Below, piece after piece: positions 12,201-28,472 of a stretch of DNA of 64,000 nt. The notes beneath the pieces were generated by a model. The model made no database searches and was not told the DNA's origin. It saw only the letters and a list, made by a program, of their open reading frames with translations. Positions within the stretch are counted from its first letter, which is position 1; every line of letters starts with the position of its first letter. Both the position numbers and the translations under genes were made by a program. The DNA is from Sandaracinobacter sp. (lineage in GTDB: Bacteria > Pseudomonadota > Alphaproteobacteria > Sphingomonadales > Sphingomonadaceae): contig JANPJJ010000152.1 of the NCBI GenBank assembly GCA_031425455.1, positions 1,411 to 65,410 of the forward strand. The letters are read 5' to 3'.

Positions 12201-12785
12201 GTGAAAATTGCATCGCTTCTGGCCCTGGCCGCTCTCACTGTCGCCACCTCCGGGTCGGCTGCCACGCTGTTCACCCAGGGTACCGCCACCGGCCCGCTGG
12301 AAAGCCCCGGATCGGTCAGCTTCCTGTTCGAGGCTGGTGCCGGTGCGGGCCTTACCAGCTTCACGCTGAACGGATTCGCCTCGCTGGACGGTGTCAACCC
12401 ATGGGGCGACACGTTCACCTTGTCGCTGAACGGCGTCGACATCCTGTCCGGTAGCTACAATCTGGGCGGCGGCGGCGACGACGTCACCTTCTACGCGCCG
12501 GCGGGCAGCAGCATTTCGGTTTCGACGCCTGGTCTCTGGCAGGGCGGCACCGGCCTGTTCCAGGTTCCGCTGGCCCTGGTCGCTGGCACCAATACGCTGA
12601 CGCTCGGCTACAGCGGTGGCGCCCAGGGGCTCGGCGACGAGGGCTGGGGCGTCTCCGACCTCTTGGTCAGCGGCAGTTCGGGCGCCGTGCCGGAGGCCGC
12701 GACCTGGGCGCTGATGATCACCGGGTTCGGAATGGTCGGCTTTGCGATTCGTCGCCGGCAGGGCGGAGTGTTGCTGCCGGCCTGA
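12201..12785 (+). CDS. PEPxxWA-CTERM sorting-domain surface protein
   Basis: Signal peptide, Gly/Ser/Thr-rich body, C-terminal VPEAATWALMITGFGMVGFAIRRR; GGAG RBS and GTG start. Confidence 0.93.
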   Translation: MKIASLLALAALTVATSGSAATLFTQGTATGPLESPGSVSFLFEAGAGAGLTSFTLNGFASLDGVNPWGDTFTLSLNGVDILSGSYNLGGGGDDVTFYAPAGSSISVSTPGLWQGGTGLFQVPLALVAGTNTLTLGYSGGAQGLGDEGWGVSDLLVSGSSGAVPEAATWALMITGFGMVGFAIRRRQGGVLLPA

Positions 12786-20883: not shown

Positions 20884-21729
20884 ATGAGGCTGCTGCTGCG
20901 CGTAGCGGGGCTGGTCGGCGTCCTCGCGATCCTGTTCCTCGGCGTCGGCCTGTGGAACGCGACCCGCCCGCCGGTCATTGTTCGCGCCTCGTTGCCGCTC
21001 GACGGCCTGCCGCCCGGCACCCGCCTGAAGGTGCTGCTCATCAGCGACACCCATTTTAGCCACCCGGATATGGGAACCGGCCGGCTTCTCTCCATTGCAG
21101 CCGCTGCCAACGCTCAACAGCCCGACCTAATCCTGCTCGCTGGCGACTATATCGGCGGCAAGCTTATCGATTGGCCCAAGGTGCGCCTCGAGCAGGCGCT
21201 GCCGCCGCTGGCAGCCCTCAAGGCTCCGCTGGGCGTCTATGCGGTGATGGGCAACCACGACGAGCCGCGCTGGACGCCGCGAATCATGGCGCTGCAGGTC
21301 CGCCCGAAGCTGCTGGTCAACAGCCATGTCGATCTCGGCCCGGTCGTGCTCGCCGGGCTCGACTCAATGAGGCATGCATCGGACTACGAGCAGGCAATCG
21401 CCGGTGCGCCGGTTGGAAAACCCCTTCTTCTGCTCCTGCACGAGCCTGAACTGCTGGCCCGTTTGGCCTTGCCGCCAAACCCGGCCGTACTCGCGCTTGC
21501 AGGTCACACCCACGGTGGCCAGATCGTGCTTCCGCTGATCGGCCGCCCAGGGGCTCTGTTGCTGGGCCGCGACCAGTGTTGGCGCGGACTCTGCAGCATC
21601 AACCAATGGCCGGTGTATGTAACCTCCGGCCTCGGGACGACCTTCGTGCCGCTCCGCTACGGCGTCCCACCGGAGATCGTCGTCTTGACGCTCTACTCCA
21701 CCGGCAGGAAATCCGGCACGCTGAGATAG
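20884..21729 (+). CDS. Metallophosphoesterase (YkuE/YaeI-like)
   Basis: [32 protein letters not shown]...PPEI; N-terminal membrane anchor. Confidence 0.92.
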
Positions 21730-22613
21730 CGCTCGCCGGTATCATAGTTGAACCCAAGCACCTTCGCGCCCGCGCCCAGCTCGGGCAGCTTCTGCGCAAT
21801 CGCCGCCAGCGTCGCGCCGGACGAAATGCCGACCAGCATGCCTTCCTCGCTCGCCGCGCGCCTTGCCCAGGTCTTGGCATCCTCCGGCGCCACCTGGATC
21901 ACACCGTCCAGCAGCTGGGTGTGCAGGTTGGCCGGGATGAACCCCGCGCCGATCCCCTGGATCGGGTGCGGCGCGGGCTGGCCGCCCGAAATCACCGGCG
22001 ACAAGGTCGGCTCGACCGCAAACACTCTCAGGCCCGGCCATTCGGCCTTCAGCACCTGCGCCACCCCGGTGATGTGGCCGCCGGTGCCCACGCCGGTCAC
22101 GATGGCGTTCAGCGGCGCCTCGGCGAAATCCGCCAGGATTTCCTGCGCGGTGGTGCGCACATGCACGTCGATATTGGCGGGATTGTCGAACTGCTGCGGC
22201 ATCCACGCACCCGGGGTCGCGTCCACCAGCTCCTGCGCCCGGGCAATCGCCCCCTTCATGCCCATTTCGCGCGGCGTGAGGTCGAAACTCGCACCATAGG
22301 CCAGCATCAGCCGGCGCCGCTCCAGGCTCATGCTCTCGGGCATTACCAGCACGATGCGGTAGCCCTTCACCGCCGCCACCATCGCCAGCCCGATCCCGGT
22401 GTTGCCGCTGGTCGGTTCGATGATGGTGCCCCCCGGCTGCAACGCCCCCGATCGTTCTGCATCCTCTACCATGGCAAGCGCGATCCGGTCCTTGATCGAC
22501 CCGCCCGGGTTCGACCGTTCGGATTTCGACCACACCTCGGCACCCGGGAACAGCCGGCTCAACCTGATATGCGGTGTGTTTCCGATCGTTTCCAGGATGT
22601 TGGCAGCAAGCAT
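21693..22613 (-). CDS. cysK: Cysteine synthase A
   Basis: [19 protein letters not shown] (PLP Lys), [28 protein letters not shown]. Confidence 0.96.
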
Positions 22614-22624
22614 CGAAGCCTCCT

Positions 22625-23914
22625 TCAGGCGAGCGGGCGGGGCGGGGCCGGTTCGGGTCTCATCGCCTGCGGCAGGTCTAGCCGGTCGGCGTCCCGCAGC
22701 TCCGGGAACAGCCGCGCCCATAGCACAGTCACCCCCAGCGCAAGCAAGCCGCCGATCACCGTCGCCTCCACCGCGCCAAACAGCGCCGCCGTCGTTCCGG
22801 CGCGGAATTCACCCAGCTCGTTCGACGCACTGACGAACAGCATCGACACCGACGAAACCCGGCCCCGCATCGCGTCGGGCGTGTGCAGCTGGATCAGCGA
22901 AGACCGGACATAGACCGAAACCATGTCGGCCGCGCCCAGCACGACCAGCGCTGCGATCGATACCCAGACGGTGGTGGAAAGCCCGAACAGGATCGTTGCC
23001 AGCGCGAAGATCCCGACATTTACGAACATCTTCACGCCCACCCGCCGCCCGAGCGGATTGCGCGTGAGCCACAGCGCCACCAGACCGGCGCCGAACGCCG
23101 GCGCGGCGCGGAGCAGGCCGAGGCCCCCCGGCCCCACCATCAGGATGTCGCGCGCATAGATCGGCAGCATCGCGGTCGCCCCGCCCAGGATCACGGCGAA
23201 CATGTCGAGCGAGATCGCGCCCAGCACGATCTGGTTGCCGCGCACATAGGCCAGGCCCTGCTTCACCGATTCGAGACCGCTGGCGTCGCTCCGCGGCGGC
23301 CGCGGCACCGGCGGAATTCGGAACAGCGCAACCAGCGACGCCGCCAGCAGCACCACCGCGATCGAATACGGCAGCGGCGGGCTGACATCATAGGCCAGGC
23401 CGCCGACGACCGGCCCCAGCACCGCACCCGTCTGCCACCCGATCGAGTTCCAGGCGATCGCCGTCGGGAGCACGTCCGGGGGCACCAGGTTCGGCGCCAG
23501 CGCCGAGAGCGAGGGCGCGGCGAAGGCCCGCGCCACCCCCAGCACGACAGCGACAGCAAACAACGGCCAGAGCAGGGTCGACCCCGCAAAAGCGAGGCCC
23601 GCCAGCACGGCGGCACAGAGCAGCTCCAGCAGGACCGCTCCCCGCGCAATGTGGCGCCGGTCCAGCCGGTCGGCGATCACGCCCACCACCAGGCTGAGGC
23701 CCAGCACCGGAAGGAACTGCGCCAGGCCGACCAGCCCCAGCAGGAACGCGGCCTCGCGGATCGGCAGGGTCGCCCGCGCCAGGTCGTACACCTGCCAGCC
23801 GATCACGATCACCATCAGCATCTGCGCCAGCGTCGAGCAGAACTTCGCCACGAAAAAGGCCCGGAACCTGGGGAAGGCGAACGGCGAGGCGGGAAGGGTG
23901 TCGACGGACGTCAC
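22625..23914 (-). CDS. MFS transporter (EntS/transmembrane secretion effector-like)
   Basis: About 12 [12 protein letters not shown] motif [10 protein letters not shown] in the second half. Confidence 0.9.
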
Positions 23915-23956
23915 GCCGGCGGCCTAGCAGGCCCGTGACGCATCAGGGAAGCCAGG

Positions 23957-24505
23957 TCAGAAACGATCTTCCCGGTCGTGCGGGAACAGCAGCTGCGGAA
24001 CCTGGGTCAGCGTCCAGCTGTCCGTCGGCACCGGCCGGTCCAGCACCCACACCATGTCATAGCGGTCGTCCGGCCAGTCCTCGGGGCATGAAACGCCCCC
24101 TGCAATCAGCCGCGCCAGTCGCGCAATCTGGTGATGGTGCCAGGCGATCAGCACCGGCGACGGCGCCAGCAGCGCGGCGGCCGCAACGGCCGGCTCCTCG
24201 CCCTCGGCATGGCTCGCATCGATAGGCAGCCCCAGGGCGTGCGAAAGCGGCTCCACGGTTCGCTGCGACCTCAGGCTCGGGCTCAGCTCGGTGGCGGCGG
24301 CGGCGAAAATGGCGCGCGGCGGCAGGATGCCGGCGTGATGCGGCTCGCCGTTTCGCGGTGCGAAGAAGTGCACCAGGGCCGCAGCGCGCTGCCAGCCCCT
24401 CACCGTGAGCTCGTGCTTGGCGTGGAAGCCATCGATGCACACGCTCCGGTCCGGCCCGCCGTGCACCGGCTTTTCGGCGTGGCGAATGATCATGATCTTC
24501 GGCAT
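23957..24505 (-). CDS. Histidine phosphatase superfamily protein
   Basis: N-terminal IIRHAEK (RHxE), LTVRGWQRA, RSQRT, VLIAWHH; no signal peptide. Confidence 0.78.
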   Translation of the reverse strand: MPKIMIIRHAEKPVHGGPDRSVCIDGFHAKHELTVRGWQRAAALVHFFAPRNGEPHHAGILPPRAIFAAAATELSPSLRSQRTVEPLSHALGLPIDASHAEGEEPAVAAAALLAPSPVLIAWHHHQIARLARLIAGGVSCPEDWPDDRYDMVWVLDRPVPTDSWTLTQVPQLLFPHDREDRF

Positions 24506-24514
24506 GGCGGCGCG

Positions 24515-24543
24515 TTGACATGAATAGGGCTCGCGTGTCCAAT
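24515..24543 (+). promoter_or_regulatory. Putative sigma70 promoter for the phosphatase/kinase-like operon
   Basis: TTGACA-N17-TCCAAT, then GGAGG at 24556-24560 and ATG 24567. Confidence 0.55.
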
Positions 24544-24566
24544 CCCCAAAAGCGGGGAGGCCGGAC

Positions 24567-25658
24567 ATGATCTGGAGGTGGGGCAGGCGGTGCGGGACGC
24601 TGCTGGCAGCGATGATCGGTATGGCCGGCGCCGGGATCGCGGCCGAAGCCGGCGATGCGGCACGGCCGGCGCCGGGGCGGATCGTCGCAATCGGCGATCT
24701 GCATGGGGACTGGTCGGCCTGGCGCGACATCGCACGCGACGCCGGGCTGGTGGATGCGAACGGCAGCTGGACCGGCGGCAGCACCGTCCTGGTGCAGACC
24801 GGCGACGTCCCCGATCGCGGCCCCGATACGCTGAAAATCGTTCAGGACCTGATGCGCCTGCAGCGCGAGGCCCCGCGCAGCGGCGGCCGGGTGATCGCCA
24901 TGGTCGGCAACCATGAGGCGATGAACGTCACCGGCGACCTCCGCTATGTCTCCGCCGGCGAATATGCGGCCTTTGTCGACAGCAATTCGGAACGCCGCCG
25001 CGCCAAGGTGTTCGATACCAACCGCGCGACCATCGAGTCGGCCTATCGCAAGGCCAAGCCAGGCATGTCGGGCCGCGACATCCAGGCGGCCTGGAACGCC
25101 CGAACGCCGCTCGGCCTGGTCGAGCATCAGCTCGCCTGGAGACCCAATGGCGAGATCGGCCGCTGGGCGATCGGCAACCCCGGCGTGGTGCTGCTGGGCG
25201 GCACCCTGTTCGTGCACGGCGGCCTCAGCGCGGCCTACATCGGGCGCTCGATCGATGACATGAACCGCCGCATCGCTGCTGCGCTGAAGGCCCGCGACAC
25301 CGCCGATAGCTCGATCATCAACGACCAGGCCGGGCCGCTCTGGTATCGCGGGCTCGCGCGCAAGCCGGGCGCCCCGGCCGAGACCGCCCCGGAAGACGGC
25401 AAGGCGCCGGTGCCGCTGTTGTCGGTGGAGGAGGAATTGGCCAAGGTGCTTGCCGCCTTCGGCGCCGATCGAATGGTGATCGGCCACACCCCGAATTTGC
25501 CCGGCATTGCCATCCTGAACGAAGGCCGGCTGGTGCGGATCGATACCGGTATTTCGGCGGTCTACGGCGGTACCCTCACCTGGCTGGAGATCGTCGACGG
25601 CAGGCTGGTCCCGCATGTCGTCGCCAGGTCGGCGCCGGCGAGTGAAAAGGGGAAGTGA
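24567..25658 (+). CDS. Secreted PPP-type metallophosphatase (Shewanella-like/Shelph)
   Basis: Signal peptide; GDLHG, GDVPDRG, GNHE, FVHGG, VIGHT and RIDTG motifs. Confidence 0.92.
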   Translation: MIWRWGRRCGTLLAAMIGMAGAGIAAEAGDAARPAPGRIVAIGDLHGDWSAWRDIARDAGLVDANGSWTGGSTVLVQTGDVPDRGPDTLKIVQDLMRLQREAPRSGGRVIAMVGNHEAMNVTGDLRYVSAGEYAAFVDSNSERRRAKVFDTNRATIESAYRKAKPGMSGRDIQAAWNARTPLGLVEHQLAWRPNGEIGRWAIGNPGVVLLGGTLFVHGGLSAAYIGRSIDDMNRRIAAALKARDTADSSIINDQAGPLWYRGLARKPGAPAETAPEDGKAPVPLLSVEEELAKVLAAFGADRMVIGHTPNLPGIAILNEGRLVRIDTGISAVYGGTLTWLEIVDGRLVPHVVARSAPASEKGK

Positions 25659-26716
25659 TGCTGAAACAGCTATTCGTCGCCGTCACGGCGCTGCTTCTGG
25701 TCTCTCCCGCAACGGCAAAGGCGCCAAAGCCGCTGTTCGCCGACAGCGAGGTCATCCGGCTCACCATCAAGGGCCCGATCGTCGCGCTTCCCGCCAGCAA
25801 GCCGGACGCCGTCGTCGACGGAACGTTGAGCGTTCAGGGCGCCGCGCCCGAGACCCTGCCTGTCACGCTGCAGCTGCGCGGGATCACCCGGCGCAAGCGC
25901 GAGACCTGCGCCTTCCCGCCGCTTCGAGTCGAGTTCCCCGCAAAACCGCCGAAAGGATCGCTGTTCCAGGGGCAGGACAAGCTGAAGCTCGTCACCCACT
26001 GCCGCCGAGACCCCGGGTTCCAGCAGAATGTGCTGCTGGAATATGCCGCCTATCGCCTGTTCAGCGAGCTGTCGCCCACCAGCTTCGCCGTGCGGCTGGC
26101 ACAGATCGATTATGTCAACGACAAGGGCCAGCCGATCACGTCCAGGCTGGGCTTCTTCATCGAGGATGTGGGCGACATGGCCGACCGCCACGGCCTGCAC
26201 CAGATGAAGCCGAAAGGCCGCATCCCGTCCACCCAGCTCGATCCCAGGGCGTCCGTTCGCTTCGCCTTGTTCCAGGACATGATCGGCAATCTGGATTGGG
26301 GCATGAACGGCGGGCCGGCGGGCGAGACCTGCTGCCACAACGCCCGGCTTGTCGCCGCGAAGGCGGATGCGACATCCGGCTTCGCCCCGATCCCCTACGA
26401 CTTCGATTATTCCGGGCTCGTCGACGCGCCCTATGCGGTGTCTCCCGCCGAAATCCAGAGCGCCGGGGTGAAGGTGCGGCGCTATCGCGGTTTCTGCTCG
26501 CACAATGCCGGGGTCGCGCCCATGGCGGAGACCTTCCAGGCAAAACGGGCCAGTCTGTTGAAGGTAATCGCGGAGGTGCCGCTGATGGATGCCGGCACGC
26601 GAAAGAAGGCGACCTCCTACCTCGAGGATTTCTTCGAGCGGATCGCAACGCCCGATGCGATCGAGGCAAAGCTCCTGAAGACCTGCGTGAAGGTGGTCAC
26701 GGTTCCCGCCAGCTGA
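25655..26716 (+). CDS. Secreted protein with CotH-like atypical kinase motifs
   Basis: Signal peptide (..SPATA|K); LRG.TR, KLKLVTHC, LLEYAAY, FFIED, IGNLDW...HN, PIPYDFD. GTGATG overlap with the phosphatase stop. The kinase fold is inferred. Confidence 0.6.
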   Translation: MMLKQLFVAVTALLLVSPATAKAPKPLFADSEVIRLTIKGPIVALPASKPDAVVDGTLSVQGAAPETLPVTLQLRGITRRKRETCAFPPLRVEFPAKPPKGSLFQGQDKLKLVTHCRRDPGFQQNVLLEYAAYRLFSELSPTSFAVRLAQIDYVNDKGQPITSRLGFFIEDVGDMADRHGLHQMKPKGRIPSTQLDPRASVRFALFQDMIGNLDWGMNGGPAGETCCHNARLVAAKADATSGFAPIPYDFDYSGLVDAPYAVSPAEIQSAGVKVRRYRGFCSHNAGVAPMAETFQAKRASLLKVIAEVPLMDAGTRKKATSYLEDFFERIATPDAIEAKLLKTCVKVVTVPAS

Positions 26717-26722
26717 AAACGG

Positions 26723-27514
26723 CTAGTCGACCCCCGCAGGGTCCGGCCTTCCGCGCGCTGCGGGCGTGCTCGTGTCATCCACGATAATCGTCGCATTCTC
26801 GATCTCCACGGTCGCGGGCGTGCCCTCCTTGCCGTGCCGCGGACCCTTGCCGTTCGGATGGTCCACCTCCACGAGGTAGCGCTTCATGTCGCTTCGCTCG
26901 CCATAGCGAAGCAGCCACAGCATCACGAAGCACAGGTTGAACGCCGCGGAACTCAGCATGGCGAGCTCGACCGCGCCGATTCCGGCCGCAAGCCCGATGC
27001 TGATCGACAGCAGGATGAACAGAAGATCGCCCGAGCTCTTCAGCGTGTTGCGATACCGCGCCGCCCCGGCGATCCCGGCCAGCGAGAAGGCGAGCGCCAG
27101 GGAATGCTGGACGATGACGACGATGCTGGTGACGACCAGCGGCAGCATCACGATGGTGTCCACCAGCGACTGGTCATATTCGTGCGGGTCGCGGATGTTC
27201 ATATAAACCCAGCTGACCGGGAGCGAGGCCAGCAGCGCGCCGAGGATCGCAACGGCGAGCCAGACCAGGCTCCCCAGGAACGAAGGCGTGCTGCCGGCCG
27301 CCGCGGGCGCGGCCCGGGCCAGCTCGGCAATGCCGTCTACGGTCGGCGCCAGCTCCCCGGCCTGGGCAAGAAGGCCCTGCACCCGGCCGATCGGCAGGCT
27401 TTCCTGAAGCGCGGGGTCGATCCAGAGCACGACCAGAAGCGCACCCGCCATCAACGCGTAGTAGAGAACAAGTGTCGAAAGAAGTCGGATTGCCGGCACG
27501 TCATGCTCCCCCAC
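26723..27514 (-). CDS. DUF4956-like membrane protein
   Basis: SLALAFSLAGIAGAARYRNTLKSSGDLLFILLSISIGLAAGIG matches the DUF4956 pattern (L.G.L...RFR...K...D..F.......G.A.G). Confidence 0.78.
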   Translation of the reverse strand: MGEHDVPAIRLLSTLVLYYALMAGALLVVLWIDPALQESLPIGRVQGLLAQAGELAPTVDGIAELARAAPAAAGSTPSFLGSLVWLAVAILGALLASLPVSWVYMNIRDPHEYDQSLVDTIVMLPLVVTSIVVIVQHSLALAFSLAGIAGAARYRNTLKSSGDLLFILLSISIGLAAGIGAVELAMLSSAAFNLCFVMLWLLRYGERSDMKRYLVEVDHPNGKGPRHGKEGTPATVEIENATIIVDDTSTPAARGRPDPAGVD

Positions 27515-27605
27515 GCCAAGGCAAGCTGGCTAGAGGATTTGCCGGGCCGGCGCAAAACACTTTCCCATGCGGCCGACCCGCTGCGGCGCCCCGGCGCGAG
27601 ATCGT

Positions 27606-28472
27606 TCAGCCGCTCGCCAGCGCCACCAGGTCGGCCGTCAATCTCGATGCGTGCGTCACGCCCAGCCCGTGCGGTGCGCCCTCATATTCCAGCAGCCGGG
27701 CGCCGGCGATGCCTGCGGCCGCCCTGCGGCCGGTCGCATCGATCGGCACCACCTTGTCGGCTGTGCCGTGGATCACGAGCGTTTCGGGCGGAAACGCCGA
27801 CAGGTCGGGCCGGAAGTCGGTCTGGCCGAACGCCTTCATCGCCGCCAGCGTCGGCCACAGCCCTGCCATCATGGCCCAGCGATGGGTCTGCTGGAGCACC
27901 TCTGCGCTCAGCGCATCCGCCTTCGGCGGCATTCCCAACATGTCCTTCACGGCCGTGCCAACCCCGGCTCCGGCCCCGTAAAACTCCTTGATGAAAGACG
28001 CCATGAACGCAGCCCGATCGGCCCGTACGCCCTCCACCATCTCGGCCAGCGCTTCCGCCGGCACGCCGTCTGGATTGTCCGGTGCCCGGGCGAGCGACGG
28101 CACCACCGCCGCCACCAACGCAGCCGCCGTCACCGCCCTGCCGCCGTGTCGCGACAGGTAGCGCGCCACCTCGCCGCCACCCATCGAAAAGCCGGCGAGC
28201 GTCACGCCGTCGGTGGCGCCGGTTGCGGCCATCACATCGGCAAGATCGTCGGCGAACCCGTCATAGTCATAGCCGGACCAGGGCTGGTCGGAGCGGCCGA
28301 ACCCGCGCCGGTCGTAGGCAATGGCCCGGAACCCGGCTTCCGCCAGGCCCAGCGCCTGCACATCCCAGCTGTCCGCATTCAGCGGCCAGCCGTGGATCAG
28401 CACCACCGGCCGGCCTTCGCCCCAGACTTTCACGTACAGCCGGGTCCCGTCGCGTGTTGTCACATAGGGCAT
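27606..28472 (-). CDS. Non-heme chloroperoxidase/arylesterase-like alpha/beta hydrolase
   Basis: LIHGWPL, YDRRGFGRS, GFSMGGG nucleophile, HGTADKVVP, GAPHG. Confidence 0.93.
   Translation of the reverse strand: MPYVTTRDGTRLYVKVWGEGRPVVLIHGWPLNADSWDVQALGLAEAGFRAIAYDRRGFGRSDQPWSGYDYDGFADDLADVMAATGATDGVTLAGFSMGGGEVARYLSRHGGRAVTAAALVAAVVPSLARAPDNPDGVPAEALAEMVEGVRADRAAFMASFIKEFYGAGAGVGTAVKDMLGMPPKADALSAEVLQQTHRWAMMAGLWPTLAAMKAFGQTDFRPDLSAFPPETLVIHGTADKVVPIDATGRRAAAGIAGARLLEYEGAPHGLGVTHASRLTADLVALASG

Follow-up and report, generated by a model that had tools for sequence, protein, structure and literature searches.

The closest described relatives of the gene module reported here belong to Gram-positive bacteria, in which genes for CotH, a VTC-type polyphosphate polymerase, DUF4956 and DUF4832 form an accessory group beside pel operons (Whitfield et al., PMC7112168). 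In Streptococcus intermedius, SIR_1592-1594 encode a membrane protein with four spans, a polyphosphate polymerase and a secreted CotH-FN3 protein; deletion of the CotH-like gene or of the membrane-protein gene in the DUF4956 position lowers Pel and aggregation by a mechanism left unexplained there, and the authors, who did not find the three-gene arrangement outside pel loci, likened the membrane domain of the DUF4956-position protein to MgtC (PMC12345266). In the NELoc-2 locus of Clostridium perfringens, the genes for VTC, for a membrane protein and for CotH follow one another, near a glycosyltransferase (PMC2879425). The CotH kinase that has been characterised phosphorylates Ser residues of proteins with ATP as the donor, and its inactivating positions are D228 and D251 (PMC7821199). 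Within the PPP superfamily, yeast Ppn2 is an endopolyphosphatase of the vacuolar compartment that receives VTC-made polyphosphate (PMC7381174), and one fungal ApaH-like PPP phosphatase bears a CotH domain (PMC8220851). We describe here a related module from an alphaproteobacterium, found in a 64-kb stretch of contig JANPJJ010000152.1 of a Sandaracinobacter sp. assembly (GCA_031425455.1), the whole of which we call the window; freshwater sediment was the source of the metagenome, and the public runs that contain the sequence are DNA metagenomes only. It pairs a PPP phosphatase of the Shelph (SLP) type and a CotH-like protein, both predicted to be exported, with a DUF4956 membrane protein, and a gene for a histidine-phosphatase-like protein diverges from them. 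The module is a cluster of the CotH/DUF4956/polyphosphate-enzyme type. The association of DUF4956 with CotH and VTC, mentioned in the original prediction that drew attention to this locus, is already published (PMC7112168, PMC12345266, PMC2879425); the CotH-like family and its pairing with a Shelph phosphatase appear to be new. We found no paper on the proteobacterial form, in agreement with the original prediction, which knew of no described function for it.

The evidence that these genes belong together comes from their neighbourhoods in other genomes. The window proteins were used to search 80 genome loci that carry relatives of the CotH-like protein (34-57% identity), and linkage was counted over 60 loci with full flanks, among them five further contigs. 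The phosphatase gene adjoins the CotH-like gene in 53/60 of these, and a DUF4956-type gene lies no more than 4 kb from the CotH-like gene in 49/60. The module occurs in at least 14 arrangements that differ by clade in order and strand, including the phosphatase-kinase pair with a convergent DUF4956 gene, the kinase-like gene followed by an inverted phosphatase gene, and a phosphatase gene divergent upstream. The four-gene unit itself recurs in five independent contigs with close relatives, between completely different flanks, and the 4-bp start/stop overlap of the two exported genes is found again in loci L082, L083, L085 and L087. Because the linkage outlasts rearrangement and is kept between unrelated flanks, the adjacency of the three core genes is not chance, and the gene-neighbourhood check proposed at the outset shows that the three families do co-occur. 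The likeness to the Gram-positive pel cluster lies in the adjacency of a CotH-type gene and a DUF4956 gene (here with stop codons 6 bp apart) and, in some loci, in a cytoplasmic polyphosphate enzyme standing beside the secreted CotH-type protein and DUF4956, a combination whose function is unexplained in that cluster too. The module differs from it in that its CotH-like protein belongs to another, Pfam-less family and that its tightest partner is the Shelph phosphatase; pel-type genes were absent from the flanks examined, where glycosyltransferases lie near the module in L083 and L084 only. As a separate observation, the Phenylobacterium metagenome-assembled genome (MAG) SMAG_U5353 holds two CotH-like paralogues, one (L001) unaccompanied by module genes, with a LysR-type regulator and an amidohydrolase-like gene next to it, and the other (L054) together with a phosphatase gene and a DUF4956 gene of a divergent form.

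The CotH-like protein is the least recognisable member of the module. It gave no match in Pfam at E-values up to 10 and none in NCBIfam, and searches of PDB sequences, with the single protein and with a profile, returned nothing. On its sequence it falls outside PF08757 as that model is currently drawn. An exhaustive profile search gathered a family of 3,995 clusters at 50% identity, with homologues that are all unnamed, from free-living Alphaproteobacteria, Gammaproteobacteria, Gemmatimonadota and others of soil, sediment and marine origin. The link to CotH is drawn from fold comparison together with weak PF08757 matches across the family, and from nothing else. The AlphaFold2 (AF2) model of the window protein (predicted local distance difference test score, pLDDT, 79.7; predicted template modelling score, pTM, 0.82) has as its top matches in a Foldseek comparison with the PDB the Bacillus cereus CotH kinase structures 5jda and 5jd9 (probability 1.0, E 1e-7, template modelling (TM) score 0.55-0.56), the only entries below an E-value of 1e-3; PI4K and PI3K rank next with far weaker scores. 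Sub-threshold matches to PF08757 occur in 22/138 diverse relatives, with a best E-value of 5e-5, and other families match at most one member each. Of the CotH-like kinase named in the original prediction, the modelled fold and the H-N and DxD motifs described below hold up, but a PF08757 match above threshold does not exist.

In these 138 sequences R79, C85, C116, E129, E170, R178, N229, D249, C281 and C344 are invariant, and K111, N212, D214, H228 and D251 nearly so (D251 in at least 90%). True CotH proteins, retrieved for comparison with a query sequence 88% identical to the nearest real CotH cluster, carry the motifs N226-Y-D228-G-F-V-H232-N233 and P-W-D251-Y-D253; the family has N212-x-D214...H228-N229...P-Y-D249-F-D251, and a composite motif is present in 115/138 members. 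When the family was compared with a CotH alignment in hhalign, HN fell on HN and PYDFD on PWDYD (probability 9.8%, E 0.0033), and the R-G of the N-lobe and the FFIED/LELES strand were aligned as well. Between N-x-D and H-N the catalytic loop has an insertion of 13 residues in 90/115 members, of 6 in a short variant and of 3 in true CotH. In most members a pair of neighbouring cysteines closes the insertion, and the model is there at pLDDT 57-64. We conclude that the protein is a CotH-fold enzyme of divergent sequence whose catalytic core appears intact and whose catalytic loop has an insertion. It shares with Bacillus CotH (PF08757; 5JD9/5JDA), its best structural match, the pattern H-N...P-[WY]-D-[YF]-D, preceded at another spacing by an N-x-D that may correspond to that of CotH, and, if exported as predicted, it would act like CotH outside the cytoplasmic membrane of its maker. 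It differs in being about 13% identical, in the lack of a Pfam match, in the 13-residue Cys-Cys loop insertion, and in its four invariant cysteines and Sec signal peptide; the hosts of the family also differ, being Gram-negative non-sporeformers from which substrates of the CotB/CotG type are absent. The signal peptide that had been predicted is apparent as MLKQLFVAVTALLLVSPATA, followed by KA; like that of the phosphatase it is of the Sec type and not that of a lipoprotein, and N-termini of this kind are conserved in homologues. The signal peptide and the four invariant cysteines, which are of a disulfide type, argue for an extracytoplasmic location. Two long relatives, P0359 and P0361, look like mis-called extensions and not fusions.

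The phosphatase is more readily placed. It matches Pfam Metallophos (PF00149) above threshold (E 2.4e-10), and its best matches among PDB sequences are the cold-active protein-tyrosine phosphatases of Shewanella (2z72, 1v73 and 2zbm; E 6e-23), ahead of weaker ones to a diadenosine tetraphosphatase (2e-3) and a Rhizobiales-like phosphatase (4e-3); NCBIfam gives weak matches only, to PrpA/B, PrpE and ApaH. The translation contains GDLHGD, GDVPDRG, GNHE, VHGG and IGHT, and the corresponding GDxHG, GDxxDRG, GNHE, HGG and GHT align with the Shewanella enzyme. At the level of sequence it is a Shelph-type PPP phosphatase with all the metal-binding and catalytic motifs of that superfamily. Its N-terminus is Arg-rich, with a hydrophobic run at residues 12-22 in a hydropathy scan, and orthologues likewise open with a signal-like sequence ending ALA-QP, all of which is consistent with the secreted PPP/Shelph phosphatase of the original prediction. 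While it matches the Shewanella Shelph group (1V73/2Z72) ahead of ApaH-type and Rhizobiales-like entries, it differs from that group in an insert at about residues 265-290 and in its pairing with a kinase-like gene; no such pairing of a bacterial Shelph was found in the literature. By analogy with yeast Ppn2, it might just as well cleave polyphosphate instead of acting as a protein phosphatase.

The third core protein is recognised by PF16316 (E 5.7e-10; 39.6 bits against a cut-off of 30.6), and a hydropathy scan predicts five transmembrane segments (14-32, 80-98, 117-135, 164-182 and 184-202) with a possible sixth at about 138-156, as would be expected of the DUF4956-like membrane protein that had been proposed; a basic C-terminal tail (203-263) holds 9 K+R. 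In ten loci (L054:8304-9044, L002:4103-4843, L082:9189-9872 and seven more) the DUF4956 protein takes a divergent form, which matches Pfam below threshold (E 1.3e-4), is encoded on the same strand as the kinase-like gene, occurs mostly in loci with the histidine phosphatase and bears a soluble C-terminal extension, in which we suspect a resemblance to the ACT domain of the S. intermedius membrane protein. In 26/80 loci, from Sphingomicrobium, Sphingomonas and related MAGs, a PPK2 gene (PF03976, E 3e-86) lies immediately upstream of the DUF4956 gene on the same strand, in the adjacent position that VTC takes in the Gram-positive pel cluster. This arrangement gives independent genomic support for the idea of donor supply or polyphosphate. 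In 25/80 loci a secreted beta-propeller protein of about 280 amino acids, with weak similarity to SdiA-regulated, NHL and phytase-like proteins, is encoded between the exported enzymes and DUF4956, and looks like a lineage-specific fifth member. A secreted protein resembling S-adenosylmethionine (SAM) methyltransferases, encoded just after the DUF4956 gene in two loci and fused N-terminally (residues 1-240) to the CotH-like domain in P0358, is possibly a further functional partner. None of these three additional genes, PPK2, beta-propeller or secreted methyltransferase-like, was found when the window was searched for them, nor was a VTC gene, the absence of which had been remarked in the original prediction.

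The histidine-phosphatase-like protein matched nothing in sequence searches of Pfam, NCBIfam or the PDB. Its AF2 model (pLDDT 92.5) has as top PDB folds, at probability 1.0, the MutT1 C-terminal domain, Rv2985, RosC, alr0221, PhoE and fructose-2,6-bisphosphatase, and the 31 PDB matches at E <1e-3 are essentially all histidine-phosphatase domains. Enzymes of this superfamily act via a phospho-histidine intermediate; R8, H9, R79, E104 and H124 are invariant in 35 sequences, R8 and H9 being the catalytic Arg-His pair, R79 the second Arg, H124 the second His and E104 the likely proton donor. Fold and residues are those of branch 1 (SixA/PhoE-like). One source names some of the homologues SixA or PhoE. 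The gene is linked to the module in L002, L004, L005, L006, L012, L063, L082-L085 and L087, and it is present in 7/13 loci at 50% or more identity to the window CotH-like protein versus 1/47 more distant ones. It is a clade-specific accessory gene of the lineage to which the window belongs. The histidine-phosphatase assignment of the original prediction is sustained by fold and catalytic residues, but the gene is not a member of the module in general.

The short region between this gene and the phosphatase gene carries, at 24515-24543, the element TTGACATGAATAGGGCTCGCGTGTCCAAT, in which a -35-like hexamer is combined with an imperfect inverted repeat (TTGACA / TGTCCAA). The pattern CGTTGACAT-N13-TGTCC(A/G)AT, which may also be written TTGACAT-N13-TGTCCAAT, is kept in front of the phosphatase orthologue of L002, L005, L082, L083, L085 and L087, and because of this conservation in six other loci we take the element to be a real conserved signal. 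Because it contains an imperfect inverted repeat, it could serve as both promoter and operator. The single TTGACA promoter originally put forward is borne out in part: TTGACA is present at 24515-24520 and conserved in the six loci, but no canonical -10 follows it and a sigma-70 consensus scan of 23800-27700 found no promoter. In the 64-kb window CGTTGACAT-N13-TGTCC(G/A)AT has a single perfect match. Sought before the DUF4956 gene and across the window, the element gave one other match, at 12369 with 2 mismatches, which is within chance (18/100 shuffles); with only this chance-level second match, co-regulation of DUF4956 with the operon is unsupported. No Pho box was seen, by eye, in the conserved element. 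A second clade (L004, L006, L012 and L084) has a different conserved element, (C/A)TTGCAC...(T/G)(G/C)GACAACA.

The four open reading frames (ORFs) of the original prediction were all found in the window, and its description of their layout agrees with the sequence (Table 1). A ribosome-binding site, GGGGAGG, precedes the phosphatase gene, whose stop codon TGA (25656-25658) shares one base with the ATG of the CotH-like gene in a TGATG junction (aaggggaaGTGATGctg); a ribosome-binding site lies just 5' of this junction, and the second gene is predicted to be translationally coupled to the first, as had been claimed. The stop codon of the DUF4956 gene converges on that of the CotH-like gene at the 6-bp distance given in the original prediction (TGAaaacggCTA). 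For the histidine-phosphatase-like gene the longest ORF is 23957..24784 (-); we place the true start at ATG 24505 (sequence MPKIMIIRHAEKP) because 35/35 aligned homologues begin there, and measured from this start the gap to the phosphatase gene is 61 bp, as first stated. For the DUF4956 gene, GTG 27499 is more likely to be the true start than GTG 27514: it is in frame, the ribosome-binding site before it (GGGGGAG) is better, and the alignments of several homologues start at residue 6 or 11, past the longer start. Neighbouring genes in the window are ordinary ones, encoding an EntS-like transporter of the major facilitator superfamily (MFS), an alpha/beta hydrolase, CysK, a YaeI/LpxG-like phosphoesterase and UvrD. 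The YaeI/LpxG-like metallophosphoesterase gene (20884-21729, +) is found 3 kb upstream of the module and encodes a protein with a hydrophobic segment at its N-terminus; its 3' end, as called, overlaps the convergent cysK gene (21693-22721, -) by 37 bp.

Table 1. Module features in the window and additional partner genes in related loci (window positions unless a locus is named)
Feature	Position	Strand	Length	Remarks
Histidine-phosphatase-like gene	23957..24505	-	182 aa	Predicted cytoplasmic, without signal peptide; divergent from operon
Divergent intergenic region	24506..24566	.	61 bp	Carries conserved upstream element
Shelph/SLP PPP-family metallophosphatase gene	24567..25658	+	363 aa	
CotH-like gene	25655..26716	+	352/353 aa	GTG 25655 or ATG 25658 start
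DUF4956 gene	26723..27514	-	263 aa	258 aa from GTG 27499
PPK2 gene	L013:7717-8553	-		27-bp gap to DUF4956; others e.g. L010, L017, L018, L024, L025, L046
Beta-propeller gene	L027:7044-7880; L053:8199-9050	-; -		23 further loci
Methyltransferase-like gene	L082:9928-10677; L002:4886-5632	+; +		Just after DUF4956 gene

We propose, tentatively and with a confidence that stops a little short of even, that the locus is a conserved extracytoplasmic phosphoryl-transfer module in which DUF4956 provides the coupling to cytoplasmic high-energy phosphate, either polyphosphate or nucleotides. It can be hypothesised that a single transcript, governed by the conserved promoter/operator, would give rise to the two exported enzymes through translational coupling, that the CotH-like enzyme would place phosphate onto an envelope or secreted substrate, and that the Shelph phosphatase would reverse this transfer or trim the donor. 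DUF4956 would couple the exported pair to the cytoplasmic pool of polyphosphate or nucleotides, as a conduit or as a regulator, and the cytoplasmic partner would vary with the lineage, being PPK2 in Sphingomonas/Sphingomicrobium-type loci, VTC in the published Gram-positive clusters and an enzyme of the histidine-phosphatase fold in the clade of the window. What the data show are gene identities, folds, conserved catalytic residues and conserved linkage; that the two proteins are exported and active, which way phosphate would flow, and what its donor and substrate would be, we infer. The writer/eraser pair, the supply of a donor by the membrane protein and the PEP-CTERM or exopolysaccharide substrates of the original prediction are likewise hypotheses, plausible and with added genomic support; for the opposing pair the evidence consists of co-translation, shared export signals and linkage. 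Several observations weigh against this proposal. The 64-kb window contains no PPK2, VTC or other polyphosphate gene, and the link to a donor is drawn by analogy; PF09359 is likewise absent from the annotated genes of L082-L087, the loci to which, besides the window, the search for VTC was confined. Seven fully flanked loci are without the phosphatase, and four of these, all at <39% identity and among the most distant, have none of the five partners tested. The window CotH-like protein has no sequence match to CotH, the profile-profile probability being 9.8% and the TM score 0.55, and the equivalent of the inactivating position D228 is D214 in the motif comparison, whereas the weak hhalign alignment points to the non-conserved E224 in a loop modelled with low confidence. 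By analogy with MgtC, moreover, DUF4956 could be a regulator and not a transporter.

The strongest competing explanation is that the module handles polyphosphate in the periplasm: cytoplasmic polyphosphate of PPK2 or VTC origin would be passed outward via DUF4956, the Shelph enzyme would be a polyphosphatase, and the CotH-like protein would draw on polyphosphate to modify a polymer, for instance exopolysaccharide, or would attach or anchor polyphosphate at the envelope. We regard this as a doubtful but serious possibility. It accords with the PPK2 gene that adjoins DUF4956 in 26/80 loci, with the phytase-like/SdiA-regulated beta-propeller in 25/80, with the glycosyltransferase genes beside the module in L083, and with the position of VTC beside polysaccharide synthases in the Gram-positive clusters, where mutants show changed Pel levels. 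Ppn2, a PPP enzyme that acts on polyphosphate, is a further precedent, and the yeast VTC/Ppn2 system offers an analogy in its whole layout, with polyphosphate made on the cytoplasmic face, a component in the membrane and, in the compartment that receives the product, a PPP-superfamily metallophosphatase; it differs in having no CotH-like enzyme, and the likeness of DUF4956 to the VTC membrane domain is by analogy only. However, the window holds no polyphosphate enzyme and in this respect has neither PPK2 nor VTC, characterised CotH is an ATP-using Ser protein kinase, and polysaccharide genes are not consistently adjacent. PPK2 enzymes, furthermore, generally consume polyphosphate. A narrower form of the phosphoryl-transfer proposal borrows the same transport step: DUF4956 would be a conduit delivering the phosphate donor, likeliest polyphosphate made by PPK2 or VTC, for the phosphorylation of envelope proteins or polymers by the CotH-like enzyme in the periplasm, where ATP would be lacking, with the Shelph phosphatase opposing it or trimming the donor. 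In this specific form we judge it unlikely; if it proved right, bacteria would have their own equivalent of VTC-coupled polyphosphate translocation, and Gram-negative bacteria a first system dedicated to phosphorylation in the periplasm.

A role in phosphate scavenging appears quite improbable. The phosphatase, together with the propeller in other loci, would free phosphate from organophosphates, the CotH-like protein would be a non-catalytic scaffold or binder, and DUF4956 would take up or sense the product. In its favour, scavenging is typically the work of enzymes such as secreted metallophosphatases and phytase-like propellers, all the linked genes have to do with phosphate, and the source is a freshwater sediment; yet N212, D214, H228, N229, D249 and D251 are invariant or nearly so among relatives that are 30-48% identical, which argues against a pseudo-enzyme, no direct repeat resembling a Pho box was seen in the upstream element, and no pst, phoU or phoB gene was seen among the neighbours examined. 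It is very improbable that the exported kinase and phosphatase are secreted effectors modifying the proteins or surfaces of other organisms, or the matrix, with DUF4956 serving regulation or release only. Both proteins have predicted Sec-type signal peptides and are not lipoproteins, and fungal CotH proteins are reported to act at the cell surface on host cells; but the family occurs in free-living Alphaproteobacteria, Gammaproteobacteria and Gemmatimonadota of soil, sediment and sea, the flanks of L082-L087 contain no linked genes for a secretion system, and the tight tie to an inner-membrane protein and to cytoplasmic enzymes points to a cell-autonomous role. That four genes of unrelated function are neighbours by chance can scarcely be credited, for although most related loci have no histidine phosphatase and the DUF4956 gene lies on the opposite strand without the upstream element of the operon, the phosphatase (53/60) and DUF4956 (49/60) keep their linkage through many rearrangements and in different phyla, the four-gene unit stands in five unrelated contexts, and the start/stop overlap is conserved.

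To our knowledge, the phosphorylation of proteins or polymers outside the bacterial cytoplasm is barely documented, and we know of no phosphate donor there. The module offers a concrete and widespread system in which the question of phosphate donors outside the cytoplasm can be asked. It also defines a large CotH-like family that escapes the domain libraries in current use, and it gives the uncharacterised DUF4956 family a testable role. In different phyla DUF4956 is found next to two polyphosphate enzymes that are unrelated to each other, VTC in the published clusters and PPK2 in the loci presented here. It is this adjacency to PPK2 or VTC that ties the proteobacterial module to the CotH/VTC/DUF4956 genes that affect Pel-dependent aggregation in streptococci.

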